The position numbers were made by a program, and so were the translations under genes. From positions 13,239-77,238 of IMG/VR virus record IMGVR_UViG_3300005656_000005: 64,000 bases of DNA. One strand, written 5' to 3'. Shown in pieces: positions 38,244-55,605 of the stretch. The stretch comes from a virus (Duplodnaviria; Caudoviricetes). The notes beneath the pieces are model-generated. The model made no database searches. It saw nothing but the letters and a program-made list of their open reading frames with translations, and was not told where the DNA came from. Each line of letters begins with the position of its first letter. The stretch's first letter is position 1.

Positions 38244-39665
38244 TTACAGGCCCATATAACCCCAAGTGTTCGGGCAATGTACCTCCTGCAAAAATCGACT
38301 TTTTATGCTCCACTCTTGCGTTTCGCAACCAGTGCCAAATGTATTCCTTACACCAAGTACACCATTGCTATCTGTCATGTTATCCCAAACCCTTCCGTCC
38401 ATTGATTTGAAATAAACAGTGGTCAGCATTTTGTTGCTGTAGCCATTGCAGGATGTAGTGATTGAAGTACGGTTTACGGCTTCTGAATTGTTGCACATTG
38501 GAACGAAGATGGCTGAATTTTTAAATACCATGTTCGGGCCACCCAGTAACTTACCATTACTGAAAGTACATTCTTCATAGATATGAAGTGTCATACCTTC
38601 AACTTTGATACCGCAGTATTCCAGGTTAATCCATGCACAATCGTTCAATGGCCTTTCAGAATATTGCAGATTAGCAATACCTACTGAATTTGCCATGCGC
38701 TGCCATTGTGAGAATAAAACACCACCCGCAAAGATTGCGTATTCACGGCAAGCAATACCGGCTGCATCCAGATCCCTTTTCCATGCACGTATATCATCTG
38801 TTGTAATTTCAGATGTAGATGCAGGTTGGAATTTGATACCCCTTGCTTTGATGGCAGGAATGATACCGAAATTAGGATTCAATAACCTTTCGTAATGCTT
38901 ACGCATTTCAAAGTCCTTGTACATATCGGCAAGGGCTTTTGTCCACCACTTTTCGATTGTGTTACCGCAATCATCGGTGAATGGAATTTTAAGGTACTGG
39001 CATTTGTTTAAAGCATCACCGCAAAGTGTTCCTTTGTCACCAATGGTAATCATATTCAGATCATATACGATTGGTAAATCATCGAAACGGAATTGCCCGG
39101 TAGGACAGGCACAATCGGCAATTTCAGAACCGGAAAGAACCAATAACTGATCTCCGGCTGTTACTACCTGTGCTGCTCCTGATGTGTTGCGTAAACGCAC
39201 TGTAATGGTTGTGTCATACCCTGTTGCATGGGTTACGGCAGTTACTACGGCAAGTTCACCGGATGGGCTTAAAACGATTGTATTACCTACCTGTGGTAAG
39301 TAATAAACGCCACCTACAAACTGGTTTGCATTTGCAAGGGCTATGATGCCGGTTGCTGGATATGCACCAATGGTTACGTTTGTTTTTACTGTGATCTGAT
39401 GAAGCTGTGCATTGTTTTCGATCAAACTGTAAGCGGGGTAGCAATCGGTTTCAAAGTTCATAAAATCTTCTAACCAGGTACTCATGGTACATTGCTCGAT
39501 AATATTACAGTTGTATGTTTCCTTGTAAATTTTGTCGGTGTGGATGCGGCCAGCGAAGGCGGCATCAAAAAAATCTTGTGCTACTGGGGTTCCGACTGTA
39601 CCCGAAAAGTAGCCTTGCTGATAACCAAGTCCGTTAGGATTGTTGGTGGTTACGATAGCGGCCAT
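38244..39665 (-). CDS. Major capsid protein (crAss-like size, with beta insertion)
   Basis: 473 aa, follows an acidic scaffold-like gene, followed by a terminator; C-terminal EWSIKSRFLQEVHCPN strand. Confidence 0.72.
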   Translation of the reverse strand: MAAIVTTNNPNGLGYQQGYFSGTVGTPVAQDFFDAAFAGRIHTDKIYKETYNCNIIEQCTMSTWLEDFMNFETDCYPAYSLIENNAQLHQITVKTNVTIGAYPATGIIALANANQFVGGVYYLPQVGNTIVLSPSGELAVVTAVTHATGYDTTITVRLRNTSGAAQVVTAGDQLLVLSGSEIADCACPTGQFRFDDLPIVYDLNMITIGDKGTLCGDALNKCQYLKIPFTDDCGNTIEKWWTKALADMYKDFEMRKHYERLLNPNFGIIPAIKARGIKFQPASTSEITTDDIRAWKRDLDAAGIACREYAIFAGGVLFSQWQRMANSVGIANLQYSERPLNDCAWINLEYCGIKVEGMTLHIYEECTFSNGKLLGGPNMVFKNSAIFVPMCNNSEAVNRTSITTSCNGYSNKMLTTVYFKSMDGRVWDNMTDSNGVLGVRNTFGTGCETQEWSIKSRFLQEVHCPNTWGYMGL

Positions 39666-39709: not shown

Positions 39710-40876
39710 TTATCGCCCCGGATTAAATCTTTGTGGTTGCCCTGCTTTTACAATCTTTCCCGTACCCTTTGCTTTCTCGGCCTGTGAACTACCGCCCACA
39801 CCAATAGACTTAGGGTCAACAAATGGAAACACCTTTTTAAATTCTTCAACCTGGCGTGTACCTCCTTCAAGGTATGCGGTTTTGGCTACTGAATCAAAGG
39901 CTTTTGATTTCAAAACAAGTTCGGCAATGTTCTGTAGATTTAATGAGCCGTCTGTTGCGTTAAATAATAATTCCTTCCTTTTAGCAATGTCCTTTAGGAT
40001 GTCTTTTGCTTCGGCAACTACTGTTTCAGGGAACTCGTATGCAACCGGGGCTATTTCGGTGTCGTCCACCTTCCCCAATTCCAAGTTGATTTTACGTTCC
40101 AGTTTATTGAAGTGTTCCTCAACATTAGAGGTAAATTCACTTTCTTTCTTGGTGTAAAACTCCTTCGCTGTAAGTGCTTTTTTAAGATTATCTAAGGTGT
40201 CTTTTGCTTCTTCTTGTTTTTCTGCACCTATGGCTTCAAATTTCTTTTTGCCATAGTCAAACTTTTTCTGTGCCAATTCCTTTTCCGTTTCATCTTCAAT
40301 TGCATCAATCTCGGCTTGCTCCAGTTGATAATACCTTTCTTTCTGGATGGCTTTTATTTGTTCCGGGTCTGTTATACCGGCTTCTTTCAATTGTTGTGTG
40401 AGTGCTGCTACTGACAGTTCTGTAAGGTCTGATTCTGCAACTTGCTTTAACAGGGAAAATTGGGCAATGCTGCCACCGTTTTCAACATAGAGGTCAAGCA
40501 TCCTTTTTTCAACTTCCTGTTGCTGCTTTACTTTTTGTTCATCGGTAAGTTCTGTTTTCTGTGGAAACCGTTTTTCGTATTCAGCCTTAATTTCATCATC
40601 GGTTAAAGGCTTTGTGGTGTCGGCAATTTGATTTCCTGTGGTGGCTGCTGCCTGTGTGCCTGTATCTGCTGCGGCAGCTTGTGTATTGGTGTCTGTGGCT
40701 TGTGCTGCTGTACCTGTATCGGCTGCTGCTGCTGGCTGCTGTTGGTTTGCTGCCCCTTCTAAATTCGGTAAAGGATTGGCTTTAAAACTTGATACGGTTC
40801 CTGCTGAAACTATCTTTCCAGTTCCTTTATTTTCTGCATTTTCTGCTGTGGCTGCTGCCTGATTTTCACCTTCCAT
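39710..40876 (-). CDS. Capsid scaffolding protein
   Basis: 388 aa acidic coiled coil with low-complexity AAADTGT repeats, directly upstream of the capsid gene. Confidence 0.65.
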   Translation of the reverse strand: MEGENQAAATAENAENKGTGKIVSAGTVSSFKANPLPNLEGAANQQQPAAAADTGTAAQATDTNTQAAAADTGTQAAATTGNQIADTTKPLTDDEIKAEYEKRFPQKTELTDEQKVKQQQEVEKRMLDLYVENGGSIAQFSLLKQVAESDLTELSVAALTQQLKEAGITDPEQIKAIQKERYYQLEQAEIDAIEDETEKELAQKKFDYGKKKFEAIGAEKQEEAKDTLDNLKKALTAKEFYTKKESEFTSNVEEHFNKLERKINLELGKVDDTEIAPVAYEFPETVVAEAKDILKDIAKRKELLFNATDGSLNLQNIAELVLKSKAFDSVAKTAYLEGGTRQVEEFKKVFPFVDPKSIGVGGSSQAEKAKGTGKIVKAGQPQRFNPGR

Positions 40877-40976: not shown

Positions 40977-41159
40977 ATGACAGATTGCGAATTACTCCAA
41001 ATGTTAGCAGACGGTTATACCGTAAAAGAAATCTTCAATGAAAAAGGTATCAATAAAAGAACCTTAGAAAAGAGAATACTTATTCTAAGAAAAAGGTGTG
41101 ATGCCGATACGGTTACAGAATTAGTAGTTAAATATTTCAGATTAAAATTAATAGAATAA
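40977..41159 (+). CDS. Solo LuxR/GerE-type helix-turn-helix regulator
   Basis: LLQMLADGYTVKEI....GINKRTLEKRI..LRKR....TVTELV matches the LuxR C-terminal HTH. Confidence 0.78.
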   Translation: MTDCELLQMLADGYTVKEIFNEKGINKRTLEKRILILRKRCDADTVTELVVKYFRLKLIE

Positions 41160-41185: not shown

Positions 41186-41527
41186 TTAATTCTGCAACTT
41201 AGTCAACCACCCTTTTTTATTCTCTTTTATTTCTTCTTTAAGGTTAGATTCTTTTTCAGGTGGTGCAAATCCCATTTCAATTAATACTTCCTCTGTCTGA
41301 ATTTCTACGTCCTGTTTTTCTGCTATCTTTTTTTTAAGATATTTCATTAATGGCAATTCCCATCTTGGAGGTAAAGGCCGTTTTGTATTTTCCTGCAACC
41401 CTCTTAATAAAACACTTCTACCTATGCCCACTTCTTTTTCAATTCTAAAAACAGGGATTCCGCTTTCAGAAACTAATTGTGAAATCAATGGAATGTTTGC
41501 AGGTTTCTTTTTTTTAGTCTTTTCCAT
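41186..41527 (-). CDS. Hypothetical protein, possible HTH
   Basis: LISQLVSESGIPVFRIEKEVGIGRSVLLR is HTH-like. Confidence 0.4.
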   Translation of the reverse strand: MEKTKKKKPANIPLISQLVSESGIPVFRIEKEVGIGRSVLLRGLQENTKRPLPPRWELPLMKYLKKKIAEKQDVEIQTEEVLIEMGFAPPEKESNLKEEIKENKKGWLTKLQN

Positions 41528-42098
41528 AAATCGGTCTGCCTATAAGATGTGAACTATAATCACAGGTCATAAAATTATTGTCGCTTTTACTTCCATCCTG
41601 GTAACAAACAAACTTGTCGCAGATCATGTATTTATGAATATTAGCGGTAAGCCCTAAATGCCTATCAAGATGAATTGATTCAGGTAAAGATAAATAGAAA
41701 TCGTAAAATGATTCATGTACTATGTAAAGGGTTAAGCTACTGAATAAACTTGTTATCCTATTATTTAAAATTGTTCCGGCATAAATCATAGCATGGTAGG
41801 TATGAAATTCATCTGGCATTTTTTCTAAAAAATAATCCCATGCAAGTTTGCCATCTGGTGATTTAAAGAACAAAATATCATCCTCCGCAATACACACCAT
41901 TTTGTACCCATTATCTTTTGCATCCTGTACGATTTGCCGGTGGGCTAAATGCACTCCACGTTTTCTATCGTGCCTATCAATTATACCCTCCCAAAATTTT
42001 ATGTAAAACCCTTGTTCTTTTGCCTGTTGCTCTGCCTGTGATTTTCTTTCCTCCCGGTGCATTAAATTAATCACATTTACTGGCAATTCTTCTGTCAT
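41514..42098 (-). CDS. Glycosyltransferase family 25
   Basis: VINLMHREER...AHRQIVQDA...VCIAEDDILF. Confidence 0.78.
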   Translation of the reverse strand: MTEELPVNVINLMHREERKSQAEQQAKEQGFYIKFWEGIIDRHDRKRGVHLAHRQIVQDAKDNGYKMVCIAEDDILFFKSPDGKLAWDYFLEKMPDEFHTYHAMIYAGTILNNRITSLFSSLTLYIVHESFYDFYLSLPESIHLDRHLGLTANIHKYMICDKFVCYQDGSKSDNNFMTCDYSSHLIGRPIYGKD

Positions 42099-42113
42099 TT
42101 TTATATGTTTTAC

Positions 42114-42229
42114 GTCACATTTTGTATTTGTGACAGCATCCTATTGTTTCCACACCTTACCACACATCAAAGTACTATGTAGTTCAAAGCTAAACTAAGT
42201 ATAAAGCACTATGTAGTTCAAAGTACTTT
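42114..42229. promoter_or_regulatory. Intergenic operator/promoter-like element: 21-bp direct repeat plus inverted repeat
   Basis: AAAG(T/C)ACTATGTAGTTCAAAG at 42169-42189 and 42203-42223; GTCACA-N9-TGTGAC at 42114-42134; TAGCTTTG (-7 box) on the minus strand at 42185-42192. Confidence 0.55.
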
Positions 42230-42494
42230 ACGATACATTGTTCTTTGGCTTTAAACTGTCTATTTTACGGTTTATTTTTTCTATTATTTCATCGTACTCA
42301 ACATCTGTAAAATCTTTTTCAAAGTACACTTGTAGTTTTGGGAATTTAATGTTATGGTTTGGGAAGCATAGCCAGTAATAATCAGGCATCATTTTATTGA
42401 ACGCTTGTATTATTTCAGAAACTCCTTTTCGTTCACCGTTTGATTCATCAAACATGAAGTCAGGATAGTAGAATAGTGCTATTGGTTTTGCCAT
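42228..42494 (-). CDS. Hypothetical protein
   Basis: 88-aa ORF, TAATG-coupled to the upstream GT25. Confidence 0.55.
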   Translation of the reverse strand: MAKPIALFYYPDFMFDESNGERKGVSEIIQAFNKMMPDYYWLCFPNHNIKFPKLQVYFEKDFTDVEYDEIIEKINRKIDSLKPKNNVS

Positions 42495-43126
42495 TATCTG
42501 TCTTGTTTTAATTTTTTAACTTCCGATTCATACCTTGTTTCCAAAAACCTACTCCAATCTGTGAACGCTTTCCCTATGTCTGAATAATCAGGTTTTTGAG
42601 TGAACAGCATTGGGTATGAAATGAACACTTTTTTATTGGGTTGAAAATCCCTTACAAGGCAATTATCTACCGGCTCATTTATTGTTTTACTACAAACAAA
42701 TTCCATTGCTTTTTTTGAATATGCAGTAGCATGGGTAGCATACATAATTCTTACTGGCAATAGATTTTCAGAATGGAATTTTTGTAACCCTGATGCACAG
42801 TTACCACCCAAATAAAATAAAGCCCAATCTTCGGGTAGCTGATCTATGCACTTATCCATTGTTTCATTAAATGTTTGTGCATCTACAAGTGGTAAAATAT
42901 CATCTTCAAAAACCAGGCATCTTTCACCACCGGCTGCAAGTACTTTTCTAAAATACCTTTGCATACTATCTACTAATCCCTGGCATGGGAAATCAGGGTT
43001 ATCGGTTGCCTTCCATAGTTGATAATTAACCCCAAATAGTTCCATAACTCCTTTTGCTGATTCTAACCTGTCAGTTCTTTTTTCAAGATTTATAAGGGCT
43101 ATATGTTTAAAGTAATCATGCCACAT
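42494..43126 (-). CDS. Glycosyltransferase family 25
   Basis: LINLEKRTDRL...CLVFEDDI...W.LFYLGG...YATHATAYS. Confidence 0.82.
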   Translation of the reverse strand: MWHDYFKHIALINLEKRTDRLESAKGVMELFGVNYQLWKATDNPDFPCQGLVDSMQRYFRKVLAAGGERCLVFEDDILPLVDAQTFNETMDKCIDQLPEDWALFYLGGNCASGLQKFHSENLLPVRIMYATHATAYSKKAMEFVCSKTINEPVDNCLVRDFQPNKKVFISYPMLFTQKPDYSDIGKAFTDWSRFLETRYESEVKKLKQDR

Positions 43127-43766
43127 TGCTTTTCTTATTTCGTTTTAGTAATTGATCTCCCCAACCCCAATGCTCATAAATAAATTCTTCTACAGGTTCA
43201 TAATCGTACTTGGAAAGATATTCTTCGATCTCTGGTTTTAAAGCACACCCTTCATAAACTTCTTTTGTATTTGTTTCTAAATATATGGCATCGAAATTAT
43301 TCAATAAGTCACCAGCACCTTTTAGAACAAATATCTCTGCCCCCTGCGTATCAATAGCAAGCAACCACCCATCTCCTATTTCTACACCAAGTTCTTTTAA
43401 TACCGTTTGCAATGTTTTTGTTTTTGTTTCAAAGTGCCTAACATAAGAAACTTCTGGGTGCGCTGTTTTATGAAAACCAAGTTGCAAGTAAGATGAACTT
43501 TGACCTTCATTGTTTGAAACATTAAATACTACATCCTTCCCATCTACTTCTCCTAAACAGGCATTAACACCTATCTGAAATGGATACGGTTTAAGGTTTT
43601 CTATAAGTTCATTATAAATTTCCTTTACCGCTTCAATCCATATTACTTTTTCAATTCCCAAATCTGCATAGGCTTGTCTTTCTTGTCCACTGCTTGAACC
43701 GCAATGAACTATGCCTTTAATATTCAGGTTATGGCGTGGCAGTAAATCTTTAAATTCTATTAGCAT
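43116..43766 (-). CDS. FkbM-family SAM methyltransferase
   Basis: GIVHCGSSSGQE...VIWIEA...SSSYL...IDTQGAEIFVLKGA...YLE. Confidence 0.82.
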   Translation of the reverse strand: MLIEFKDLLPRHNLNIKGIVHCGSSSGQERQAYADLGIEKVIWIEAVKEIYNELIENLKPYPFQIGVNACLGEVDGKDVVFNVSNNEGQSSSYLQLGFHKTAHPEVSYVRHFETKTKTLQTVLKELGVEIGDGWLLAIDTQGAEIFVLKGAGDLLNNFDAIYLETNTKEVYEGCALKPEIEEYLSKYDYEPVEEFIYEHWGWGDQLLKRNKKSNVA

Positions 43767-43767
43767 C

Positions 43768-44148
43768 TTATTTTATTTTTTTATAGATTTCAACAGTTAA
43801 GTAATCAATTAGGTAAGAATAGGCTTCATCACTTTCCTCTACTACCAATTTCATTCCTATTCTATCCATGACAAATGTTACTGCATGGAATATTTCGTGT
43901 TGTAAATTACCATAATCTTTAGGTGTGCCGGTAAATTTAACCAAACGTATTAATGTCTGATTTGTAGAAAACATTACCGTTCTCCCTTGCACCGTCTTGC
44001 TCGTTATTGTTGCCATAGATATATCATCGGCAGATAAATTGTACTTTTTAAAATGCTTATCTATTTCTTCGTTAGTTTCCCCAAAAGAAACCATTACATC
44101 AAATGGATAAATAACTAATGGTATTATAAAATTTAATTTCTTTTTCAT
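43768..44148 (-). CDS. Small HExxH protein (zincin-like)
   Basis: LQHEIFHAVTFVM...DEAYSYL. Confidence 0.6.
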   Translation of the reverse strand: MKKKLNFIIPLVIYPFDVMVSFGETNEEIDKHFKKYNLSADDISMATITSKTVQGRTVMFSTNQTLIRLVKFTGTPKDYGNLQHEIFHAVTFVMDRIGMKLVVEESDEAYSYLIDYLTVEIYKKIK

Positions 44149-44684
44149 TTTTTTATTATTAAAGCCCCGGCATCTTCCAATTTATTTTCAGGTATCAAAT
44201 GTATTTCAAGGCCATTGGCTTCTGCAAATTCTTTTACTGCTTGCTTAACCCCGTATGCAGGATTTTCATAATCGTGAAACGCCATTACTCCACCCGGAAC
44301 TAATTTACTCCAATAGGCGGGTATATCCCCACTCACGCCTTCGTATGAATGATTACAGTCAACGTATGCCAATCCCAATGTACCATCTTCAATGTAATCA
44401 GCCATTTCTACTGATAGTCCACGAAGTACTGTTACATTTTCTTTAAACGGTTCAATTCGTTTCATGGCATCGTCATAATTTTTATCATGCCAATCCTGGT
44501 GGTTGTTTCCATCTCCGGTTATTCCTAATATTTTACCCCAGTTATCAACCATGTATAATTTTTCTATGCCATTGGTTAAAAGTTCATGGGAGTTATACCC
44601 TTCTGCACATCCGATTTCTGCGGCTGTCTTTGGCAATCCTAACTGCTTTAAAAGACTTGGTAATTCTCTCCTATAAGTTATCAT
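44145..44684 (-). CDS. Class I SAM methyltransferase (Methyltransf_24-like); start moved to MITYRR
   Basis: AAEIGCAEG...AYVDCNHSYEGV..D....L.PGGVMAFHDY. Confidence 0.82.
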   Translation of the reverse strand: MITYRRELPSLLKQLGLPKTAAEIGCAEGYNSHELLTNGIEKLYMVDNWGKILGITGDGNNHQDWHDKNYDDAMKRIEPFKENVTVLRGLSVEMADYIEDGTLGLAYVDCNHSYEGVSGDIPAYWSKLVPGGVMAFHDYENPAYGVKQAVKEFAEANGLEIHLIPENKLEDAGALIIKK

Positions 44685-45324
44685 TTTCGTTTTTTTTATA
44701 CTTGTTATAGATATAATCAAAAGTCTTTCCCCTTACTAAAGCGTTTTTTATATTCATAAATTTGGTATTTAATAAAATAGCCCAATCTTGAATACATAAA
44801 TTAAGCCCATTATATTCAATATATACATTACTCCTTCTGTTTCTATTTTGATTGGGGCGTGTATCCCATTTACAATTTTCAGGGCTATATTCTTTATCAT
44901 TATCTACTCTCTCTAAAGTATGTTTTTCGCTTGGCTTATCGCCCATATCTAAAATAAAATTTTCAAAACTTGAAATCCATCTATCACATACAAATATTCC
45001 TCTCGCTCCGTAATCAGGATATTGTGGATGATTAGGTCGTCCACATCTTGCTTTCATATTACACCAAGCATTATATTCAGATGTTGTGAATGTTAATGTA
45101 TGGTTGCCATGATGCGTATGAATCAATTTTGCCATTTCTCCTATTCCACAACCGCATGATTTAGTTAATCCCCTTTTTATATTTCTTGCAAATATATCTT
45201 TAACTTTTCCACAGTCACATAGGCATTTAAACTTTACTTCTTCCCCTTTTTGAAATGGCAACAATTCTAATATAATTAATTTGCTAAATCTTTGTCCTAC
45301 AAAATTAAAATAGTCTGGTTTCAT
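44671..45324 (-). CDS. Phage HNH-family (homing) endonuclease; start moved to MKPDYF
   Basis: VGQRFSKL...CLCDCG...SCGC...EYNAWCNMKARC...DYGARGIFVCDRW...TLERVDNDKEYSPENCKW. Confidence 0.85.
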   Translation of the reverse strand: MKPDYFNFVGQRFSKLIILELLPFQKGEEVKFKCLCDCGKVKDIFARNIKRGLTKSCGCGIGEMAKLIHTHHGNHTLTFTTSEYNAWCNMKARCGRPNHPQYPDYGARGIFVCDRWISSFENFILDMGDKPSEKHTLERVDNDKEYSPENCKWDTRPNQNRNRRSNVYIEYNGLNLCIQDWAILLNTKFMNIKNALVRGKTFDYIYNKYKKNENDNL

Positions 45325-45433
45325 AAAAACAAAATCCTGCAAACAGAAGGTAAATCACAATCAGTTTTAAGTGAAGGTGCATCTGCTTACAGGAATTTAT
45401 CGTGAATAATTTCATAACTGAACTGTGATTTAC
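45305..45433 (-). promoter_or_regulatory. Structured leader of the HNH gene with two interleaved stems and a 36-codon uORF
   Basis: Stem B 45416-45433/45350-45366 (17 bp, 1 bulge); stem A 45382-45394/45335-45347 (13 bp, 2 G-U); uORF 45415-45305. Confidence 0.55.
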
Positions 45434-45446
45434 AACACTAATATAG

Positions 45447-46238
45447 TTATTTTTTTAACTCGTGCCAATTAAAATTTAAAGGGTCAAAATCATCTATCTT
45501 ATCGGTAAACCAATATATTGAATTTTCTTCGTTTCCATTAAGCCTTGCGAAGTTTGAGTATATGGTCATTCCGGTTCCAATATTTGACATATTATCAATC
45601 TGCTTTGCCGAACCGCCAACAAAAGTAAAGCAGTTTAATTCAGGCTCTATAATGATACAGGCGTGATCTATACCTATGGAACGGTGCATAACACTATCCA
45701 ACATATCCATTACCTTTTGAACCGATTCTCTTTTTATTATCCAGCAATGCGTACTGAAACAACCCAGAACTCTTATCACTCTTGGGTCGTCTGTTAATTC
45801 TGCGTCCCTTCCAATATTGCTACCATTTAGCATATACCCATTCCCATTGTGCCAATGCGGGGGATTGCAGTGGAATAAAGCACCTCCAAAAAATATATCC
45901 CAATCGTGTGTTTCAAAAAACTTTTCCATGTAATCAATGCGTTCTTTGAAGTCAGTAGCCATCACAACATCGTCCTCTAAAACGAAACAGTGCTTATTTT
46001 GTTTAATTGCTTCTACCATCATTTCCCGCATCCCCATCCAACATCCGACAGCACCAGGAGTTCGCCCAGCCATTACCTTAAACCTATGCTCGGTCATATC
46101 GTATTCTTCTGGCAACTTACCCCTTGTTCTTCCGGCAACTAAACCGACACGATATAATTCTTTTTCAATATGCTCCCTGCGGTCTAATCTTTGGTCAAGG
46201 TTTAAATAAGAAATGTAGCAATCATCAAGTAAACTCAT
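45447..46238 (-). CDS. Glycosyltransferase family 25
   Basis: YLNLDQRLDRR...GAVGC...CFVLEDDV. Confidence 0.82.
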   Translation of the reverse strand: MSLLDDCYISYLNLDQRLDRREHIEKELYRVGLVAGRTRGKLPEEYDMTEHRFKVMAGRTPGAVGCWMGMREMMVEAIKQNKHCFVLEDDVVMATDFKERIDYMEKFFETHDWDIFFGGALFHCNPPHWHNGNGYMLNGSNIGRDAELTDDPRVIRVLGCFSTHCWIIKRESVQKVMDMLDSVMHRSIGIDHACIIIEPELNCFTFVGGSAKQIDNMSNIGTGMTIYSNFARLNGNEENSIYWFTDKIDDFDPLNFNWHELKK

Positions 46239-46957
46239 TGGATATAATTTTTAAATGCTGAATAAACATTTTTAACTTCCGACTTTAATTTATCGGCTGC
46301 ATTTGGATACCTGATATTAAACCTCCCCCTCCATTCTGCATCAATTGGTTCACGTAATCTTTCAGGTAATGAAATTATGTAATCATCCGTTATGGTAGAA
46401 TAATTATGTGGGTAAAGGGTTTTTAATTTAATAAATATTTCATGAATAGAAGGCCATTCTGTAGGGTTAAGCGGTGCAGGTGGTTGTCCTAAAAATAAAC
46501 GGGCATCATCAATGATTATTATTGCATCTGCCTGATACCTTGCTATTGCATCCAGTTCTTCCATTAATGGACATTCTGAAAATTGACTTTGGTTTGGTTC
46601 GGGATCGCTGTAATGCGAATCAATAAAAAACATGGCATAGTTATAAACCGGAACATCCTTATCCGGCTGTGGTATCTTATTTTTTTCTGCAATTAAACCA
46701 TCAATTATTTTTGGTAACAGATCAACGGTGTGTCCGGTAAGCCATGTTACGTTTTCAATGGTTTCATCTATTACTGCACGATTTTCTATTAACTCAATTG
46801 TTATTACTTTTTCAAAATGCTTTGCAGCTATTCTTGTACTATCTCCACCGGCTGTACCACACTCCACTAATGTTGGTATCTCTACATAGTGTATAAGATG
46901 ATTAATCAAATACATCGGTATGCCGCCAGTATTAACCCCATTTAACTCGTATCCCAT
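46235..46957 (-). CDS. SAM-methyltransferase-like protein
   Basis: TLVECGTAGGDS...VITIEL...FFIDSH...PLMEELDAI...IIIIDDARLF. Confidence 0.68.
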   Translation of the reverse strand: MGYELNGVNTGGIPMYLINHLIHYVEIPTLVECGTAGGDSTRIAAKHFEKVITIELIENRAVIDETIENVTWLTGHTVDLLPKIIDGLIAEKNKIPQPDKDVPVYNYAMFFIDSHYSDPEPNQSQFSECPLMEELDAIARYQADAIIIIDDARLFLGQPPAPLNPTEWPSIHEIFIKLKTLYPHNYSTITDDYIISLPERLREPIDAEWRGRFNIRYPNAADKLKSEVKNVYSAFKNYIQ

Positions 46958-46968
46958 AATTTATGTTT

Positions 46969-47634
46969 TTATATTTTTACCCATTTTTTATTGCTGACTA
47001 TTGTATGTGCAATAATTGGTTCAGGAAAAAGAATTTCAATTGGTGTTGGTACATAATCTTCATGCAACAAATCATTTCTTATAAAAACAGCGTCAAGTTC
47101 AGCTACGGTATAAACTAATGTATATCCTTTCCTACTCATAATTCTGTTTAATGCTAACAGGCTTGCCCCATAATAGTCGTCCCCCGCCCACTTATGTTGA
47201 GAATCGTATTCAATAGCGTAGCTTTCATCGTTTGAGAACTTAGAATTAAATTCAGTTATTACCACCTTTGGCTTAATCTTAATAGCATTAAGTATGTACG
47301 CTTCATTCCCATCAATATCCACAGACAGCAAGTCCAATTCAAACACTTTGTACATTGAAAATATCCGGTTGATGTTATGGGCTGTTATAAACTCTTTTTC
47401 AACTATAGGAGATAAGGGTTCTGTATCCATAAGCAGCCCTCTCCACCCTTTATTTAAACGCAGATGTGCGGTGTTAGATAGTTCAACCCCATCCCTTGCT
47501 CCGAACTCCACAAATGTTCCTTTCTTAATTCCAAACTGACTAAATATTAATTCCAAAATACCGTCCTGCCCTTTTTGGGAATACACACTTCTTTCGGCTA
47601 TGCTTAATTGGTATGGGCTTAAATTAAATTTCAT
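46969..47634 (-). CDS. FkbM-like methyltransferase; start moved to MKFNLS
   Basis: VYSQKGQDGIL...FVEFGARDG..LSNT...WRGLLMD...DLLSVDIDGN. Confidence 0.8.
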   Translation of the reverse strand: MKFNLSPYQLSIAERSVYSQKGQDGILELIFSQFGIKKGTFVEFGARDGVELSNTAHLRLNKGWRGLLMDTEPLSPIVEKEFITAHNINRIFSMYKVFELDLLSVDIDGNEAYILNAIKIKPKVVITEFNSKFSNDESYAIEYDSQHKWAGDDYYGASLLALNRIMSRKGYTLVYTVAELDAVFIRNDLLHEDYVPTPIEILFPEPIIAHTIVSNKKWVKI

Positions 47635-47636
47635 TT

Positions 47637-48392
47637 TTACAGTTTTATCCATGTGTCAGGAATAATGTCTTTGGTATCAGCACCTCCCCATCCCGCTTGG
47701 AACCATAGTTCTTGTGTAATAATTACTTTATCATGGTTACGATTAATATAGGACGACCACCATGAAAAAGTACTACTGCTGTTTATATTTGAGTGGCAGC
47801 AACTAATCTCTATAAAGTCCTGCATAATATCGCTGTTGGTGCTGTACTCAAAATTATACAGATGCCCGAATTTATTTTGAAAATAATTTAGATCATCTGA
47901 AAATACTTTAAACCTTGTAATGCCTGTTTTTTCTGTTATCAATGCCATTGCTTTTGTAAGGTATGGTTCATCTACTAAGATGTGCTTACCTGCTATGGTG
48001 AGATAATCCCCAAATCTTGCCTGTATAGAACAAACATCTGGTATCAATTCCCAACGCAAATTAAAAGATTCAATCATTTCATCTTTATAGTCTTTGAAAT
48101 AAAGTTCTGATTGAAAATATCCTTGTAAGGTAATGTTATTGTTTCTCCAGGATTCATCAAAAGGGATTTCATCATAATGGAAGTTTTTTTCTTTTACTAC
48201 TATTGCCGGTATCCCTGCGTTATAGGTTGGGTCTTGAAGGTGTTTTAAATAAATTGGCGACCAGAACTCATTGCTTGTTCTTGTCGGTACGCTGAACTTT
48301 AACCCGTGTTTTTTTGCATACGCAAATGCTGCTGCACAAGTGAAAAAGAAATTACCTGCTCTACCTGCCGGGATAAAAGATACATGGCTCAT
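47637..48392 (-). CDS. Glycosyltransferase family 11 (alpha-1,2-fucosyltransferase-like)
   Basis: GRAGNFFF...LQGYFQSELYF...SIQARFGDY...VFSDD...D...ISCCHSNINSSSTFSWW. Confidence 0.85.
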   Translation of the reverse strand: MSHVSFIPAGRAGNFFFTCAAAFAYAKKHGLKFSVPTRTSNEFWSPIYLKHLQDPTYNAGIPAIVVKEKNFHYDEIPFDESWRNNNITLQGYFQSELYFKDYKDEMIESFNLRWELIPDVCSIQARFGDYLTIAGKHILVDEPYLTKAMALITEKTGITRFKVFSDDLNYFQNKFGHLYNFEYSTNSDIMQDFIEISCCHSNINSSSTFSWWSSYINRNHDKVIITQELWFQAGWGGADTKDIIPDTWIKL

Positions 48393-48402
48393 AGTTATTC
48401 GT

Positions 48403-49389
48403 TTATTTGTTTGTTTTTTGTACCTCTGAATTAACCCAATTATACAGGCGTGTAATTCCCTGAATTAAAGGTTTTGATGGCGACCAATTTAAAACTGTTT
48501 CACAAAGTTCATTATTACTATTTCTGCCTCTTACACCCTGCACACCTTCGACATTTTTTATTGTAAGGTTTTTGCCCGAAATATCAATTATCATTTGTGC
48601 AAGATTATTAATTGAAATGAGTTCTGAACTTCCAATATTTATCGGGTTTGTATAGTCGCTATCTAACAGCCTTAATACGCCTTCAATTGCTTCGTCAATG
48701 TATAAGAAACTTCGTACAGCCTGACCATCTCCCCATACGTCTATTTCGTCACCATCTTTAGCCATTGCAACTTTACGGGATAATGAGGCCGGGGCTTTGG
48801 CTCTTATTCCGTCATAGGTGGTAAATTCACCAAATACATTATGAAAACGGGCAACCCTGATATTTAATCCTTTATTCCTGTAAAAGGAATCATATAGACA
48901 TTCGCTAAAAAGTTTTTCTATTCCGTATGCACTTTCCGGTCTGCTATGCCAAACCATATCTTCGGACAAAGAAACATTATCAGTACCCATTTGGAATTTT
49001 TCAGAATAAGCACAAGCTGATGAACTCCAAAATATTTTTTTAATTTTAAATAGTGAAGCATAGTGTGCCACATTCAAATTTAATAATGCTGAATCATACA
49101 TTATTTCTGAATCATTTTCACCTGTGGCTAAAAATCCCATTCCTCCCATAGAAGCACTATACTGAAAGCAAACATCGAATGAATCATTGCTTGTATAAAA
49201 CATCACTTTTGAAGCCTCTAAGGAATCCCTTAAATCACAAAATATATTTTCATCTGCCGGTGATTCGGTAAACTCATTTTTTTTAATGTCAACACATCTT
49301 ACCCAATACCCTAATTCTTTTAACTTGATAACTGTGTTAATTCCAAGAAATCCTTGTCCTCCAAAAACTATTGCCGTTTTTTGTTTCAT
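48403..49389 (-). CDS. NAD-dependent epimerase, GDP-mannose 3,5-epimerase-like
   Basis: GGQGFLG, MGGMGF, YGIEK, RFHNVFG, KAPASLSRKV, WGDGQAVRSF, GVRGRNS motifs characteristic of the GME subfamily. Confidence 0.85.
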   Translation of the reverse strand: MKQKTAIVFGGQGFLGINTVIKLKELGYWVRCVDIKKNEFTESPADENIFCDLRDSLEASKVMFYTSNDSFDVCFQYSASMGGMGFLATGENDSEIMYDSALLNLNVAHYASLFKIKKIFWSSSACAYSEKFQMGTDNVSLSEDMVWHSRPESAYGIEKLFSECLYDSFYRNKGLNIRVARFHNVFGEFTTYDGIRAKAPASLSRKVAMAKDGDEIDVWGDGQAVRSFLYIDEAIEGVLRLLDSDYTNPINIGSSELISINNLAQMIIDISGKNLTIKNVEGVQGVRGRNSNNELCETVLNWSPSKPLIQGITRLYNWVNSEVQKTNK

Positions 49390-49802
49390 ATTATTTTATT
49401 TATTATTAAAAATCTTCTGTGAACTGGATGTGTTTTTGTGGGTATTGATTCATAAAATTTCCCGTTCTTAGGAACTTGGTTTACCGATACCGAAAACACA
49501 AGTGAAACAGTATGCCTTTTATTCCCTTTTTGTACCTCTCTTGGGAACTCCATAAATCCTAACAATTTTGGAACGTAAACCCGTATCCCCATTTCTTCTT
49601 TTGCTATTCTGTTTATTGCTGAACCTATGCTTTCTCTGAATCTTATCCTACCTCCGGGCAAATGCCACTTTCCTTTATATGGCTCAATATCCCTTTTTAT
49701 CAAAAATACTTCACCTGCTTCAACCAATAAAATATCCACACATACCCTTGTTGACTTTGAGTAAATAAAGTTATAGTCTTTATCGGATAAATAGCCACTC
49801 AT
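49386..49802 (-). CDS. Nudix hydrolase, GDP-mannose mannosyl hydrolase-like
   Basis: VCVDILL...LIKRDIEPYKGKWHLPGGRI..RESIGSAINRIAKEEMG. Confidence 0.75.
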   Translation of the reverse strand: MSGYLSDKDYNFIYSKSTRVCVDILLVEAGEVFLIKRDIEPYKGKWHLPGGRIRFRESIGSAINRIAKEEMGIRVYVPKLLGFMEFPREVQKGNKRHTVSLVFSVSVNQVPKNGKFYESIPTKTHPVHRRFLIINKII

Positions 49803-50521
49803 TTTAGTTGTTTTATTTTATCTAATATTGATTGATGAAATCCTGGTGGTGTTCGGCTGACATTGTTTTGATAATGGCTACCTGAATGAACACGGTGAAA
49901 GTACTGTAATCCCTGTACTATTTTTATTTTTTTACCAGACCGGAGCCAGTTGTAACAAACATAGATTGAATCGGAAGTAACCGGGTTTACTGTACCATCC
50001 CAATTGTGTAGGTAGTTTTCCCTGTTGACAAAGTAGTTTGCCGCATTTAAACAGGTTTCAAACATGGGTTTATCAATCCACTCATTTACATTTTCTTTTG
50101 AAATTAACAGGGCTGAATACCCTCTGAAATCAAAGTTTGGCATTGCATATTCGGGAGTGTAAATTGTGTCTGCATCCCATTCAGTTATTTCAAATATTCT
50201 ATCCAGATAATCGGTATCAATGACATTATCTGAATCCAGCAAAATACAAAATGGTTGCTTGGCCCCAAATACTGCTGTTCTTTTGTTGAAGTAACAATCT
50301 TGATTGGAAAGGTTACGGCTTAAAGTTATCTTATTGCCATAAGACTGATTTAAAACATCAATAATTGTTTTTACCTGTTTAAATATTTCAAGATCGCTGG
50401 CATCATCTGAAATATAAATATCCGATATTCTTTCATCGGCAATAACCTTGCTGAAACTTTCTACTAAAACATCAACCCGGTTATATGTCGGGATTACAAG
50501 TGAAATTTTTCTATCTTCCAT
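49799..50521 (-). CDS. Glycosyltransferase family 2 (GT-A)
   Basis: ISLVIPTYNR...ISDDASD...ILLDSDN. Confidence 0.85.
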   Translation of the reverse strand: MEDRKISLVIPTYNRVDVLVESFSKVIADERISDIYISDDASDLEIFKQVKTIIDVLNQSYGNKITLSRNLSNQDCYFNKRTAVFGAKQPFCILLDSDNVIDTDYLDRIFEITEWDADTIYTPEYAMPNFDFRGYSALLISKENVNEWIDKPMFETCLNAANYFVNRENYLHNWDGTVNPVTSDSIYVCYNWLRSGKKIKIVQGLQYFHRVHSGSHYQNNVSRTPPGFHQSILDKIKQLK

Positions 50522-50834
50522 TTAGCTGTTTTACTCGTTTATTAAATTTTTTTATTGCGTTCTTTTTATTTAGTGCTGATACATAAACACAACCTGTTTT
50601 AATCAATACCTTTTTTACTATACCGGCATCAGCTTTATTTATTCTTGTGGGTAATAAGGCATCTACCTTTTCATATTCTGCAAGTTCTATATCTCCTGTT
50701 TGCGTATTTATTTGAAATAAGACATGGCCTCTTTGTGGTGTAATGGTTCCCAGCTTCTTTAATTCGTATTTCTTCTCTGCCTGGTTTACAATTTCAACTT
50801 TGTCTTTTTCTGGTATGTGCTTATCTAATTTCAT
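50511..50834 (-). CDS. Hypothetical protein
   Basis: 107-aa ORF in operon order. Confidence 0.55.
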   Translation of the reverse strand: MKLDKHIPEKDKVEIVNQAEKKYELKKLGTITPQRGHVLFQINTQTGDIELAEYEKVDALLPTRINKADAGIVKKVLIKTGCVYVSALNKKNAIKKFNKRVKQLNGR

Positions 50835-51088
50835 AATTGAAGCGTTAATTGTTTTACTGTTGGCAAATGTTGTTTTATTTCTTGTGGCTGCTCCGGTTCA
50901 CCATAAGGTGTGTGTGGAACGAATTTCAGAAACTTTCCTGACCTGTCAAAATAATCAAAGCCGCACTTGTCATTCCATTCTCCGATTGCTACTATTAAAT
51001 CTTTACTGCCACATTCACAAACCGCTTTTTTAATATGCGTTCTTAGTGGCATTATTTCTTTACAATTATTACAGTAGGATTGTGACAT
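50831..51088 (-). CDS. Zinc-ribbon small protein; start moved to MSQSYC
   Basis: CNNC...CECGS. Confidence 0.55.
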   Translation of the reverse strand: MSQSYCNNCKEIMPLRTHIKKAVCECGSKDLIVAIGEWNDKCGFDYFDRSGKFLKFVPHTPYGEPEQPQEIKQHLPTVKQLTLQL

Positions 51089-51089
51089 A

Positions 51090-51326
51090 TTATTTATTGA
51101 TAAAAATAATAAATTCTGATCTGTTTTCTGCACTGTCGGAAATATAACAATCAATTTCGTTTCCCTTTATGAACTTTTTAATCAGCCCCAGGTGTTCTTC
51201 TTTTCTTAAAACTGAACTGGATTTGCAGTACCATCCAACGGTTGTACTATCTGTTAAACTTTTTCTGATTGGATTAATAATCTTACAGTTTAGGCTTAAC
51301 AGATATTTTCTTAATTGTTCGTTCAT
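51090..51326 (-). CDS. Hypothetical protein
   Basis: 78-aa ORF, stop 1 nt before the next ATG. Confidence 0.5.
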   Translation of the reverse strand: MNEQLRKYLLSLNCKIINPIRKSLTDSTTVGWYCKSSSVLRKEEHLGLIKKFIKGNEIDCYISDSAENRSEFIIFINK

Positions 51327-55320: not shown

Positions 55321-55605
55321 TTATTTTATTGGGTAACAAACTGTGTCAAACTTTTTATCTGCTTCTGCTGAAGGGTTCCCTTCGGGATATACTAATTTAT
55401 AGGCACTATCATATTTTGCTGAATAGTATTTATAAAGTTCATTGCCACATTCAGATTTTATAACATAATACTTTTCAACTGAATCATAGTACTTTGAAAG
55501 TAATGGACGATATTTAGGATATACGTGCTTACCATTTTTTACATACCCATCATTGCACCCAAAAATAAAAGCACACAAGACTAAGGATAGAATAATATAT
55601 TTCAT
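55321..55605 (-). CDS. Predicted lipoprotein
   Basis: MKYIILSLVLCAFIFG|C lipobox. Confidence 0.65.
   Translation of the reverse strand: MKYIILSLVLCAFIFGCNDGYVKNGKHVYPKYRPLLSKYYDSVEKYYVIKSECGNELYKYYSAKYDSAYKLVYPEGNPSAEADKKFDTVCYPIK

Follow-up and report, generated by a model that had tools for sequence, protein, structure and literature searches.

A soluble glycan-building cassette beside phage virion genes, with virion protein as its possible target

An uncultured phage of Bacteroidota-type bacteria carries, next to its head genes, a cassette of 11 soluble sugar-pathway enzymes. Our best reading, to which we give a probability of about 0.45, is that this cassette glycosylates virion protein in the cytoplasm. 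A variable set of glycosyltransferase and methyltransferase genes ending in the same transferase, GT25a, precedes virion genes in three phage groups without detectably related capsids, an arrangement that is new here. Since virion genes border the cassette in each of these groups, a virion target is favoured over a host glycan, a choice that the original prediction had left open. The window is a 64,000-nucleotide stretch (positions 13,239 to 77,238 of IMG/VR record IMGVR_UViG_3300005656_000005); the record itself is 77 kb long and 74% complete, and its replication module seems to be missing.

Eleven soluble enzymes in three blocks

The cassette occupies positions 41514-50521 of the window on the minus strand and encodes three GT25-like transferases, GT11, GT2, GME, a Nudix hydrolase and four SAM-methyltransferase folds. 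Its features, in the order of transcription, are as follows.

49799-50521, minus: GT2-family GT-A glycosyltransferase (GT2), 240 aa; Pfam PF00535, 34.2 bits
49386-49802, minus: Nudix hydrolase, 138 aa; Pfam NUDIX, 44 bits
48403-49389, minus: predicted GDP-mannose 3,5-epimerase (GME); Pfam SDR epimerase, 101 bits; PDB 2c59, E 6e-74
47637-48392, minus: GT11-family transferase, 251 aa; Pfam PF01531, 59.7 bits
46969-47652, minus: FkbM-like methyltransferase 2 (FkbM2), 227 aa; Pfam PF05050, 19.7 bits, below cut-off
46235-46957, minus: class I SAM-methyltransferase-like protein of unnamed family, 240 aa; motif I GTAGGD (GxGxG)
45447-46238, minus: GT25-family glycosyltransferase (GT25c), 263 aa; Pfam PF01755, 34.8 bits; EDD motif
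44671-45342, minus: HNH homing endonuclease; phrog_374, E 5e-60; start likely the ATG at 45324
44145-44720, minus: Methyltransf_24 (TylF-like) O-methyltransferase; Pfam PF13578, 58.3 bits; weak TylF match; start likely the ATG at 44684
43768-44148, minus: small HExxH protein, 126 aa; phrog_1365, E 4e-13, a widespread phage family
43116-43766, minus: FkbM-family methyltransferase (FkbM1), 216 aa; Pfam PF05050, 49 bits; TIGR01444, 51 bits
42494-43126, minus: GT25-like glycosyltransferase (GT25b), 210 aa; Pfam, 17.8 bits, below cut-off; weak PHROG 'glucosyltransferase' match
42228-42494, minus: 88-aa protein, kept between GT25b and GT25a in the related locus L030
42099-42227, minus: intergenic gap before GT25a, with repeats, a TAnnTTTG-type element and a hairpin
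41514-42098, minus: GT25-like GT-A enzyme (GT25a), 194 aa; AlphaFold model, pLDDT 87; Foldseek matches

All 11 enzyme genes of the original prediction are present, and their families hold in Pfam, structure, alignment and PDB matches; GT25a, GT25b and FkbM2 fall below the Pfam cut-off (17-18 bits for GT25a and GT25b against GT25) but are otherwise supported, and the EDD motif is invariant in an alignment of GT25a, GT25b and GT25c. GT2 carries DSD/DTD motifs and is 53% identical to its counterpart in L030 and 48-51% to those in L128, L130 and L132, with no homologue among cultured phages. GT25c is 50% identical to L030 and 48% to L132, the Methyltransf_24 protein 50% and 53%, respectively, and GT25b 73% to L030 and 32-35% to the group B loci described below. 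FkbM1 (64% identity to L030, 48% to L130, and 33-37% to cyanophage homologues that adjoin glycosyltransferases) is probably a sugar O-methyltransferase. FkbM2 shares 39-42% identity over 60 aa with clear FkbM ORFs of the relatives, and a bacterial homologue adjoins GME (E 1e-23). The remaining SAM-fold protein, also foreseen, has the GxGxG form of motif I; Pfam and PHROG searches gave no match for it, and its structural neighbours in the Atlas, a class I methyltransferase and domains fused to GT2/FkbM proteins (TM 0.66-0.76), are a lead, not proof, that it is class I SAM methyltransferase-like.

The genes share one strand, as expected of the tightly coupled operon first described, but the run of enzymes is interrupted: the HNH, HExxH and 88-aa genes are interleaved, and gaps of 105 and 130 bp divide the cassette into three blocks. 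The HNH gene is an insertion, not a pathway enzyme, and many relatives have related copies, scattered beside their capsid gene. The HExxH protein, which is missing from L030, probably lies outside the glycan pathway; its Atlas neighbours are unnamed phage proteins, and an M78-like match (0.86) is a lead. The 88-aa protein is 56% identical to its L030 counterpart at the same position, and family searches including PHROG gave no match. GT2 is the first gene of the cassette, and its start overlaps an upstream gene (50511-50834); a Cys-rich 107-aa ORF lies beside the cassette at 50831-51154.

None of the 11 enzymes has a transmembrane helix, and the 77-kb record holds no polytopic membrane ORF. 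The cassette phage thus encodes no recognizable flippase (Wzx), polymerase (Wzy), initiating undecaprenyl-phosphate transferase or membrane-anchored glycosyltransferase, in agreement with the original prediction.

The sugar donor

The 'GME-like epimerase' can be defined more sharply. It matches PDB 2c59 over residues 8-326, and the alignment keeps all eight signature residues (S143, C145, Y174, K178, N203, K217, R243 and R306; list from PMC8787198). It is therefore predicted to be a true GDP-mannose 3,5-epimerase and is the only nucleotide-sugar enzyme of the cassette; because of this, the donor would be GDP-L-galactose or GDP-L-gulose, not GDP-fucose. Its identity is 57% to L130 and 41-47% to cyanomyovirus orthologues. 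GT11 is the neighbour of GME not only here but also in cyanophages and 6 bacterial loci, and since this adjacency recurs, GT11 is probably an L-galactosyl (fucosyl-type) transferase using the product of GME. Its donor-binding motif is non-canonical (QARFGDY versus HVRRGDY/HVRRTDY in L030 and S-SCSM1).

The Nudix protein matches the GDP-mannose mannosyl hydrolase 1rya weakly (E 6e-7), and its homologues (37-49% identity) adjoin GME in Saccharibacteria and other CPR loci. We read it as a probable GDP-sugar hydrolase that adjusts the pool of GDP-mannose and GDP-L-sugars. It is missing from L030 and so is not essential to the cassette.

GT25a, the terminal gene

GT25a defines a new phage family of about 190 aa, with 132 clusters at E<=1e-30. 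Among the best Foldseek matches of its model are the LOS-type GT25 beta-1,4-galactosyltransferase 8xlz, which ranks first, Mimivirus R655 (E 4e-8), human COLGALT1 and PBCV-1 A64R (E 6e-6); the two giant-virus enzymes are 11-16% identical to GT25a in sequence. R655, COLGALT1 and A64R glycosylate proteins, which we counted in favour of a protein acceptor. GT25a was not found in cultured phages by tblastn, and GT25a-like genes are rare in Bacteroidota (9 weak matches in 401 genomes). The best relative among these sits in a glycocin-like peptide locus with a GG-leader Cys/Ser-rich peptide, thioredoxins, a GT14 enzyme, a C39-ABC exporter and HlyD; we counted this locus, too, for a protein acceptor, a link that rests on 22% identity.

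In the gap before GT25a, the 15-bp sequence TTTGAACTACATAGT occurs twice as an exact direct repeat, at 42174-42188 and 42208-42222; within the window, exact copies are confined to this gap. A TAnnTTTG-type element lies there too, and a short hairpin directly precedes the start codon. The gap may be GT25a's own promoter/operator.

The cassette precedes virion genes in three lineages

Downstream of GT25a lie the following genes.

41186-41527, minus: HTH-like protein, 113 aa; 34% identity to L030 7312-7704
40977-41159, plus: LuxR/GerE-type HTH ORF, 60 aa, read from sequence; weak Pfam GerE match, E 0.006
39710-40876, minus: putative scaffold, at the start of the virion operon; synteny
38244-39665, minus: putative major capsid protein, 473 aa, at the start of the virion operon; >260 homologues

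The distance of about 640 bp to the head operon that had been noted is borne out (637 bp), but the two units are not contiguous, as both HTH genes lie between them. Homologues of the 113-aa protein lie on the opposite strand in relatives (in L030, the one at 7312-7704 is a minus-strand gene), and the LuxR/GerE-type ORF points towards the cassette and away from the head operon. From this gene layout, with a convergent regulator gene in between, the cassette appears to belong to an upstream operon that is not co-transcribed with the head genes. We infer the scaffold and capsid labels: the pair is syntenic in 34 loci, Pfam, PHROG and PDB searches gave no match for either, and the capsid structure model is poor.

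In the phage's own capsid lineage, glycosyltransferase and/or methyltransferase genes fill the slot before scaffold and capsid in every locus with enough upstream sequence (the window, L005, L006, L008, L011, L015, L018, L019, L020, L022, L024 and L030). The content varies, and GT25a comes last in all of them except L008. Orthologues of GT25a occupy the equivalent position in 10 metagenome loci and in 18 IMG/VR loci found by a GT25a profile search. Co-occurrence thus holds for the window's capsid type and extends to two groups in which the window's capsid profile found no capsid protein. In group B, the order GT25b-GT2-GME-GT11-FkbM-GT47-GT25a leads directly to a portal gene (phrog_6547, E 5e-55) and 383-aa and 455-aa proteins; in group C, the cassette leads into virion structural proteins (phrog_13977 and phrog_14478). 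Host genes flanking the cluster, which would have spoken against a phage function, were not seen, as 28 of 28 related loci are phage contexts. In the GME tree, the phage copies group apart from the bacterial and cyanophage ones, and the topology conflicts with capsid lineage, indicating that the cassette moves between phages.

The likely product and its acceptor

These data support the earlier proposal of a multi-sugar, O-methylated glycan made by soluble enzymes in the cytoplasm. The cassette should be a self-contained, horizontally mobile, glycan-building unit, and its product should be a short, methylated, L-galactose-containing chain. We infer the following order of steps. GME would turn host GDP-mannose into GDP-L-galactose/L-gulose, with the Nudix enzyme probably trimming the GDP-sugar pool. 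Five soluble transferases (GT25a, GT25b, GT25c, GT2 and GT11) would attach sugars singly from nucleotide-sugar donors, and four SAM-dependent methyltransferases (the two FkbM enzymes, the Methyltransf_24/TylF-like enzyme and the unnamed one) would O-methylate them. Because GT25a is kept by nearly every relative, is placed last and adjoins the virion genes, we propose that it is the acceptor-specific (priming) transferase, with the variable enzymes elaborating the chain. Its retention, at 27-52% identity, across soil, freshwater and wastewater phages suggests a conserved acceptor rather than a hypervariable O-antigen or capsule. The acceptor would most likely be a virion protein, giving a glycan-decorated virion.

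Several observations count against a virion acceptor. No candidate stands out, with no collagen-like repeats or marked Ser/Thr-rich segments, and in groups A and B, the capsid-like proteins have conserved C termini and no Ser/Thr-rich tails. The cassette and the head genes are transcribed separately, with a regulator gene between them. Bacterial GT25, GT11 and GT2 enzymes mostly act on lipid-linked oligosaccharides, and the first-ranked fold match of GT25a is of LOS type. Accessory genes in general often land at the boundary before structural genes, and searches found nothing homologous to the mycobacteriophage enzymes of proven function.

A somewhat less probable reading, to which we give around one chance in three, is that the soluble phage enzymes extend and methylate host-primed undecaprenyl-linked glycans, which the host flippase and ligase then export. 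In gene content, the cassette resembles polysaccharide loci of bacteria and the 'cell wall synthesis and modification' clusters of cyanomyoviruses (such as S-SCSM1 and S-SCSM2R), and the missing initiating transferase and flippase are expected if host-made intermediates are hijacked. One variant involves the general protein O-glycan of Bacteroidota; throughout the phylum it keeps a conserved inner core, which could be the substrate of the conserved GT25a. The assembly of these O-glycans takes place on undecaprenyl phosphate at the cytoplasmic face, and methylation and fucosylation are common among them (PMC12871550). The phage's signal-peptide proteins contain the sequon D-[ST]-[AILVMT] 22 times where 8.0 are expected, a 2.75-fold enrichment that its other virion proteins do not show (32 observed versus 30.5 expected); the exported phage proteins should therefore receive whatever O-glycan the host cell makes. 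If this variant is true, Sec-exported fibre, tailspike and small partner proteins, as well as host surface proteins, would get a phage-specified glycan. In the other variant, which has been proposed for cyanophage clusters, receptors are masked through changes to O-antigen or capsule; hypervariable O-antigens fit poorly with a GT25a kept across three lineages and several habitats. Both variants leave the constant position beside virion genes unexplained, and the enzymes have no membrane-association signal. Moreover, the 77-kb record contains no integrase or resolvase, and no capsid homologue or prophage copy occurs in 401 Bacteroidota genomes; the phage thus looks virulent, making lysogenic conversion and long-term receptor masking unlikely.

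It is unlikely that the acceptor is instead a small peptide or metabolite, such as a glycocin-like phage peptide, or a non-virion phage or host protein. The glycocin-like RiPP locus of GT25a's nearest Bacteroidota relative and the small conserved 88-aa (42228-42494) and Cys-rich ORFs in and beside the cassette point that way, but no exporter or leader-peptide gene adjoins the cassette, the three lineages do not share these small ORFs, and the constant neighbours are virion genes. DNA hypermodification to evade restriction is very improbable: phage glycosyltransferases are classically DNA-modifying, authors of cyanophage papers raise this option for similar glycosyltransferases, and precursor genes could sit in the absent part of the record, but no known DNA sugar modification uses nearly as many as five transferases and four methyltransferases, a GDP-L-galactose supply together with GT11 and O-methyltransferases of FkbM/TylF type belongs to glycan chemistry rather than to known DNA chemistry, the cassette lies by virion rather than nucleotide-metabolism genes in all three lineages, and, extending the original observation, the 77 kb contain no thymidylate-synthase-like hydroxymethylase or TET/JBP (weak for TET, whose control search also matched nothing).

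Comparison with known systems

Among cultured phages, T4-like cyanomyoviruses (S-SCSM1 gp121-134, S-SM2, S-SSM7, P-SSM2 and S-SCSM2R; PMC12801897), the only ones with a true GME orthologue, offer the nearest analogues in their 'LPS / cell wall synthesis and modification' clusters. Like the cassette, these clusters place GME before GT11, side by side with GT25, GT2 and FkbM methyltransferases, and encode soluble enzymes of predicted function without a flippase. By contrast, they belong to large myoviruses of cyanobacteria, lie in hyperplastic regions rather than at a head-module boundary, and also make GDP-fucose; the S-SCSM1 cluster comprises GMD, Fcl, GME, alpha-1,2-FucT, glycosyltransferases and methyltransferases. 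They have no homologue of GT25a, GT2 or GT25c, and the S-SCSM1 GME falls in a separate clade.

Bacteroidota protein O-glycosylation loci (LFG; PMC12871550) similarly make methylated, fucose-type glycans with glycosyltransferases at the cytoplasmic face, and their sequon is the one enriched in the phage's exported proteins. The phage encodes neither the undecaprenyl-phosphate priming nor the flippases, oligosaccharyltransferase and ligase on which these loci depend, and GT25a-like genes are rare in these bacteria. Serotype-converting temperate phages (GtrABC-type O-antigen glucosylation) also alter a glycan, but do so through a membrane flippase, a polytopic transferase and lysogeny, whereas the cassette phage lacks such membrane proteins and an integrase.

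In giant viruses (chlorovirus PBCV-1, A64R, PDB 2p72; Mimivirus, R655, PDB 9crz), virus-encoded, cytoplasmic machinery independent of host pathways uses GT-A transferases to make oligosaccharides on virion proteins, which in PBCV-1 are methylated. These are eukaryotic viruses with other sugars and linkage chemistry, and A64R and R655 resemble GT25a in fold at low identity.

The glycosylation site in mycobacteriophages is a Ser/Thr-rich C-terminal tail, unlike the capsid-like proteins of the cassette phages. Mycobacteriophages also differ in host envelope and phage type, tblastn found no homologues of GT25a, GT2, GT25c or FkbM1 in them, and the cassette is far larger than their gene sets and has its own nucleotide-sugar supply. 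As cited in PMC12801897 and PMC11256854, Che8, Corndog and Myrna (Freeman et al. 2023, Cell Host Microbe) are the only experimentally shown instance of the mechanism that we propose for the cassette: soluble phage glycosyltransferases encoded beside structural genes decorate the phage's own capsid or tail proteins in the cytoplasm.

The cassette encodes soluble glycan-building and methylating enzymes

The glycan-enzyme cluster described in the original prediction was recovered by profile, alignment and structure searches, which re-identified its enzyme families on the minus strand from 50521 to 41514. Read from 50521, this cassette encodes a GT2 enzyme, a Nudix protein, an SDR epimerase, a GT11 enzyme, a weak FkbM-type protein, a SAM-fold protein and a GT25-like enzyme (GT25c), followed by an HNH endonuclease, a Methyltransf_24 protein, a 126-aa HExxH protein, a clear FkbM-type protein, a second GT25-like enzyme (GT25b), an 88-aa unknown protein and a third GT25-like enzyme (GT25a). 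The features discussed here and in the junction with the head operon are as follows.

48403-49389, minus strand: GDP-mannose 3,5-epimerase (GME)
47637-48392, minus strand: GT11 enzyme
46969-47652, minus strand: weak FkbM-type methyltransferase (FkbM2)
44671-45342, minus strand: HNH homing endonuclease
43116-43766, minus strand: FkbM-type methyltransferase (FkbM1)
42099-42227: gap upstream of GT25a
41514-42098, minus strand: GT25a
41186-41527, minus strand: 113-aa HTH-like gene
40977-41159, plus strand: 60-aa LuxR/GerE-type HTH ORF
39710-40876: putative scaffold
38244-39665: putative major capsid protein

GT25c exceeded the PF01755 gathering score (34.8 versus 24 bits), whereas GT25a and GT25b, at 17.0 and 17.8 bits, fell under it. 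Both can be aligned to GT25c, and an EDD motif is invariant among 13 aligned sequences from the three paralog groups. The best structure matches of the GT25a AlphaFold model (pLDDT 87) were the GT25 enzymes beta-1,4-GalT 8xlz, Mimivirus R655 and human COLGALT1, with PBCV-1 A64R lower among the matches. A predicted GT-A fold, the EDD (DxD-type) metal/donor motif and nearest structures within GT25 together place the modelled protein in this family. FkbM1 was above the cut-off in both Pfam (PF05050, 49 bits) and TIGR01444 (51 bits); FkbM2, at 19.7 bits, was under it and is homologous to clear FkbM ORFs of related phages. The structural neighbours of the SAM-fold protein are methyltransferase-like, and some are fused to GT2 or FkbM domains.

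As had been noted from the sequence, there is no membrane-anchored glycosyltransferase, as all cassette enzymes are without a transmembrane helix, and no flippase, Wzy or Und-P transferase, as the 77-kb record is without a polytopic membrane protein. A search for the components of a Wzx/Wzy- or ABC-dependent polysaccharide locus (initiating phosphoglycosyl transferase, flippase or ABC exporter, polymerase or ligase) found none, with 0 ORFs on the coding strand of the record having more than three hydrophobic segments.

The gene at 44671-45342 was rejected as a pathway enzyme because it is a homing endonuclease. Related HNH genes are scattered through the phage lineage (loci L003, L005, L014, L016, L017, L018, L025, L027, L028 and L033), most often immediately 3' of the capsid gene, and one copy lies within this cassette. 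The slot before the head genes also holds an IS1595 transposase in L005 and a GIY-YIG gene in L024.

A predicted GDP-L-galactose supply

The GME-like epimerase proved to be a genuine GDP-mannose 3,5-epimerase, closer to characterised GME than to GalE or Fcl, by both full-length similarity and signature residues. It matched Arabidopsis GME (PDB 2c59) over residues 8-326 with an E value of 6e-74, clearly ahead of the runners-up, which were non-GME SDRs at 1e-18. The GME signature consists of the triad S143/Y174/K178, the acid/base pair C145/K217, and R306, R243 and N203 (PMC8787198); all eight residues are conserved in the HMMER alignment, in which the chain index is 2 off the published numbering. 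The product from GDP-D-mannose is predicted to be GDP-L-galactose/L-gulose, and since GME is the sole nucleotide-sugar enzyme of the cassette, the GDP-mannose would be drawn from the host.

The GT11 enzyme scored 59.7 bits with PF01531 (gathering score 23.9). Its gene follows that of GME in the window, and the same order recurs in cyanophages (Bellamy and S-PRM1, for example) and at six bacterial loci; because of this recurrent adjacency, the enzyme is best read as the transferase that uses the GME product. HxRRxD is a donor-binding motif important in the GT11 family. It is absent from the window enzyme, which has QARFGD in the columns where L030, a locus of the same capsid lineage, and the cyanomyovirus S-SCSM1 have HVRRGD/HVRRTD, suggesting altered donor use or a decayed or weakened enzyme.

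In the genomes of Saccharibacteria and other CPR bacteria, homologs of the Nudix protein, up to 49% identical, adjoin GME; the Nudix gene is missing from L030. Gene neighbourhoods suggest that an L-galactose glycan module may be widespread in tiny-genome CPR bacteria. Five CPR loci (L059, L063, L066, L079 and L092) carry GME and Nudix genes, often also with GT11 or FkbM.

Regulator-like genes separate the cassette from the head operon

The spacing of about 640 bp previously given between the cassette and the scaffold/capsid operon was measured at 637 bp. Cassette and operon are not contiguous, as two regulator-like ORFs intervene: the 113-aa HTH-like gene and, on the opposite strand, the LuxR/GerE-type ORF. 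Homologs of the former in L005, L006, L024 and L030 have the opposite orientation. GT25a also has an upstream gap of its own of approximately 130 bp, containing two exact copies of a 15-bp direct repeat (TTTGAACTACATAGT) 34 bp apart. The repeats, which adjoin a TAnnTTTG-like element and have no further exact copy in the window, may act as an operator. A TGTCACA...TGTGAC hairpin lies immediately 5' of the GT25a start codon.

For the putative capsid protein (473 aa), there was no PHROG, Pfam or PDB match, the AlphaFold model reached a pLDDT of 50, and an hhalign comparison with the structural protein of the Flavobacterium elemo phage gave no match. The putative scaffold is cysteine-free and carries a nearly identical KGTGKIV(S/K)AG motif at its N- and C-terminal ends.

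The phage and its probable host

The full record, of which the window covers bases 13239-77238, is 77,238 bp long, has 120-bp inverted ends and is estimated to be 74% complete; nearly all genes are on the minus strand. The large terminase shares approximately 23% identity with its counterparts in Flavobacterium 'elemo' and Cellulophaga podophages, which, together with a GC content of 34-41%, points to a host among the Flavobacteriia/Bacteroidota. The gene adjoining the terminase gene, a 776-aa ORF (6547-8877), probably encodes the portal: it bears a faint resemblance to the phrog_6547 portal of L130, a locus from another phage group (23% identity over 162 aa, E 1.5e-6). The elemo phage, a cultured distant relative, differs in gene order, and its annotation holds no glycosyltransferase or methyltransferase.

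Lysogenic conversion was rejected, as no integrase or resolvase was found in the record and a capsid-profile search of 401 sampled Bacteroidota genomes yielded no prophages.

Related cassettes adjoin virion genes in three phage groups

Over 260 homologs of the putative capsid protein were found, the closest of which are 77-90% identical and lie on Logan contigs of up to 76 kb; IMG/VR single-protein scans found nothing when queried with the scaffold, with the capsid protein or with the capsid alignment. A metagenome scan delimited 34 loci of this capsid lineage (group A). All those with enough upstream sequence carry glycosyltransferase and/or methyltransferase genes 5' of the scaffold and capsid genes. 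The contents of this slot vary. In L030 the cassette is syntenic with that of the window at 50-73% identity; L011 has TylF/Methyltransf_24, GT2+DUF5672, Methyltransf_23 and GT25a; L020 and L008 have a GT2/FkbM/unknown set in common; and L005 and L024 have FkbM and GT25a only. GT25a is the final gene in ten group A loci and is lacking from L008.

A GT25a profile matched 18 IMG/VR loci. In group B (L128-L130, L132 and L133), a cassette closely similar to that of the window, in the order GT25b-GT2-GME-GT11-FkbM/Methyltransf_24-FkbM-GT47-GT25a, is directly followed by a portal gene (phrog_6547, E 5e-55) and then by genes for 383-, 455- and 292-aa proteins. In group C, the genes after GT25a encode virion structural proteins (phrog_13977 and phrog_14478). 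The window capsid profile had no match in either group, and the portal is the sole faint link. By gene order, glycosyltransferase genes are positioned at the structural module in three phage lineages. A search of 1.84 billion representatives gave 132 clusters of the GT25a family at E<=1e-30; no members were found in cultured phages.

Origin of the cassette

The four GME sequences encoded in cassettes stood apart, in trees, from 81 sequences of bacteria and cyanophages (support 91-93). The window copy paired with that of L130 from group B (support 95) and not with that of L030, which belongs to the window's own capsid lineage; the branches are long and the groupings call for caution. This long-branched tree gives a picture of a phage-resident cassette that may have been exchanged between lineages. 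Recent capture from a host was rejected, given uniform GC, the rarity of GT25a in Bacteroidota and the phage GMEs forming their own clade.

GT25a-like genes gave 9 weak matches in 401 Bacteroidota genomes. The best was a protein with two GT25 domains (22% identical; probability 97% in hhalign), encoded in a glycocin-like locus of a Bacteroidota genome (L125:7043-14656, genome G261). This locus also encodes a 78-aa precursor, in which a GG leader precedes a core rich in Cys, Ser and Thr, as well as two proteins with thioredoxin domains, a GT14 'Branch' enzyme, an ABC exporter with a C39 peptidase, and HlyD, a gene content that identifies it as a predicted peptide-glycosylating context. Bacteriocins glycosylated by GT25 and GT14 enzymes may be so far undescribed in Bacteroidota.

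Candidate targets of the glycan

Direct glycosylation of a virion protein fits best with a conserved terminal transferase, variable elaborating enzymes and full solubility, and it is further favoured by the absence of lysogeny genes and by the invariable placement against virion genes in three lineages. GT25a would act as the conserved terminal transferase, and the variable enzymes would elaborate the glycan. We give this reading a probability of roughly 0.45. Three observations count against it. First, no acceptor is evident: a search of the virion proteins found no Ser/Thr-rich tails or collagen repeats. Second, the usual acceptors of these enzyme families are lipid-linked glycans. Third, homology to the proven mycobacteriophage enzymes is lacking, as searches of 50,697 phage records with GT25a, GT2, GT25c and FkbM1 gave no mycobacteriophage match.

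The main rival reading, editing of host Und-P-linked glycans by the cassette, is somewhat less probable. The general O-glycan of Bacteroidota has a core conserved phylum-wide, and this glycan, which often carries methyl groups, is assembled on the cytoplasmic face (PMC12871550). In favour of host-glycan editing, signal-peptide phage proteins, fibre and tailspike included, show a 2.75-fold enrichment of the Bacteroidota O-glycosylation sequon D-[ST]-[AILVMT] (22 sequons versus 8.0 expected by shuffling), and the remaining, non-exported virion proteins show none (32 versus 30.5). The sequon-rich signal-peptide proteins are encoded at the following positions.

Genome 11575-14197: sequon-rich signal-peptide proteins
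Window 935-3793: sequon-rich signal-peptide proteins
Window 55321-55605: sequon-rich signal-peptide protein region

A narrower form, which we regard as unlikely, is that the phage rewrites the host's general protein O-glycan and the product lands on its own Sec-exported fibre and tailspike. Cytoplasmic phage transferases and methyltransferases would extend the conserved undecaprenyl-linked core, and the host flippase and oligosaccharyltransferase would then attach a methylated, L-galactose-bearing glycan, specified by the phage, to the exported phage proteins.

Modification of phage DNA is highly improbable, because the cassette chemistry and the genomic neighbourhood are both wrong for it, and the original claim that hydroxymethylase and TET genes are absent held in so far as PF00303 (thymidylate-synthase fold) and PF12851 (TET/JBP dioxygenase) were unmatched, but in a record from which about a quarter of the genome is missing and with a TET control search that was also without a match.

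Discussion

What is new here is a GT25a-led enzyme set, a built-in L-galactose supply and evidence for one mobile cassette serving three phage lineages. To our knowledge, virion glycosylation has been experimentally shown only in a few mycobacteriophages and giant viruses. If direct glycosylation of a virion protein is correct, it would extend to abundant uncultured podophages of Bacteroidota-type hosts in soil, freshwater and wastewater, and GT25a would be a marker gene for finding and counting such phages. A glycan coat could alter particle stability, adsorption, grazing and immune recognition. The phage GME, the GT11 variant and several sugar O-methyltransferases might also serve to synthesise rare L-sugar glycans. 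If the cassette instead edits host glycans, this would be the first phage known to edit the Bacteroidota protein O-glycan. Rewriting of that O-glycan would imply host-recognition gear that is matured in the periplasm and glycosylated by the phage, and a viral toolkit that opens the still unknown steps of Bacteroidota O-glycosylation.

Among proven mechanisms, the closest is the glycosylation of virions in mycobacteriophages, for which the Che8, Corndog and Myrna enzymes are proven. The enzymes of the present cassette are unrelated to the mycobacteriophage set and would come with their own GDP-L-galactose supply. The nearest cultured analogues are the glycan clusters of cyanomyoviruses, which contain the same families and a GME 41-47% identical to that of the window, and whose putative function is usually ascribed to host-surface modification.
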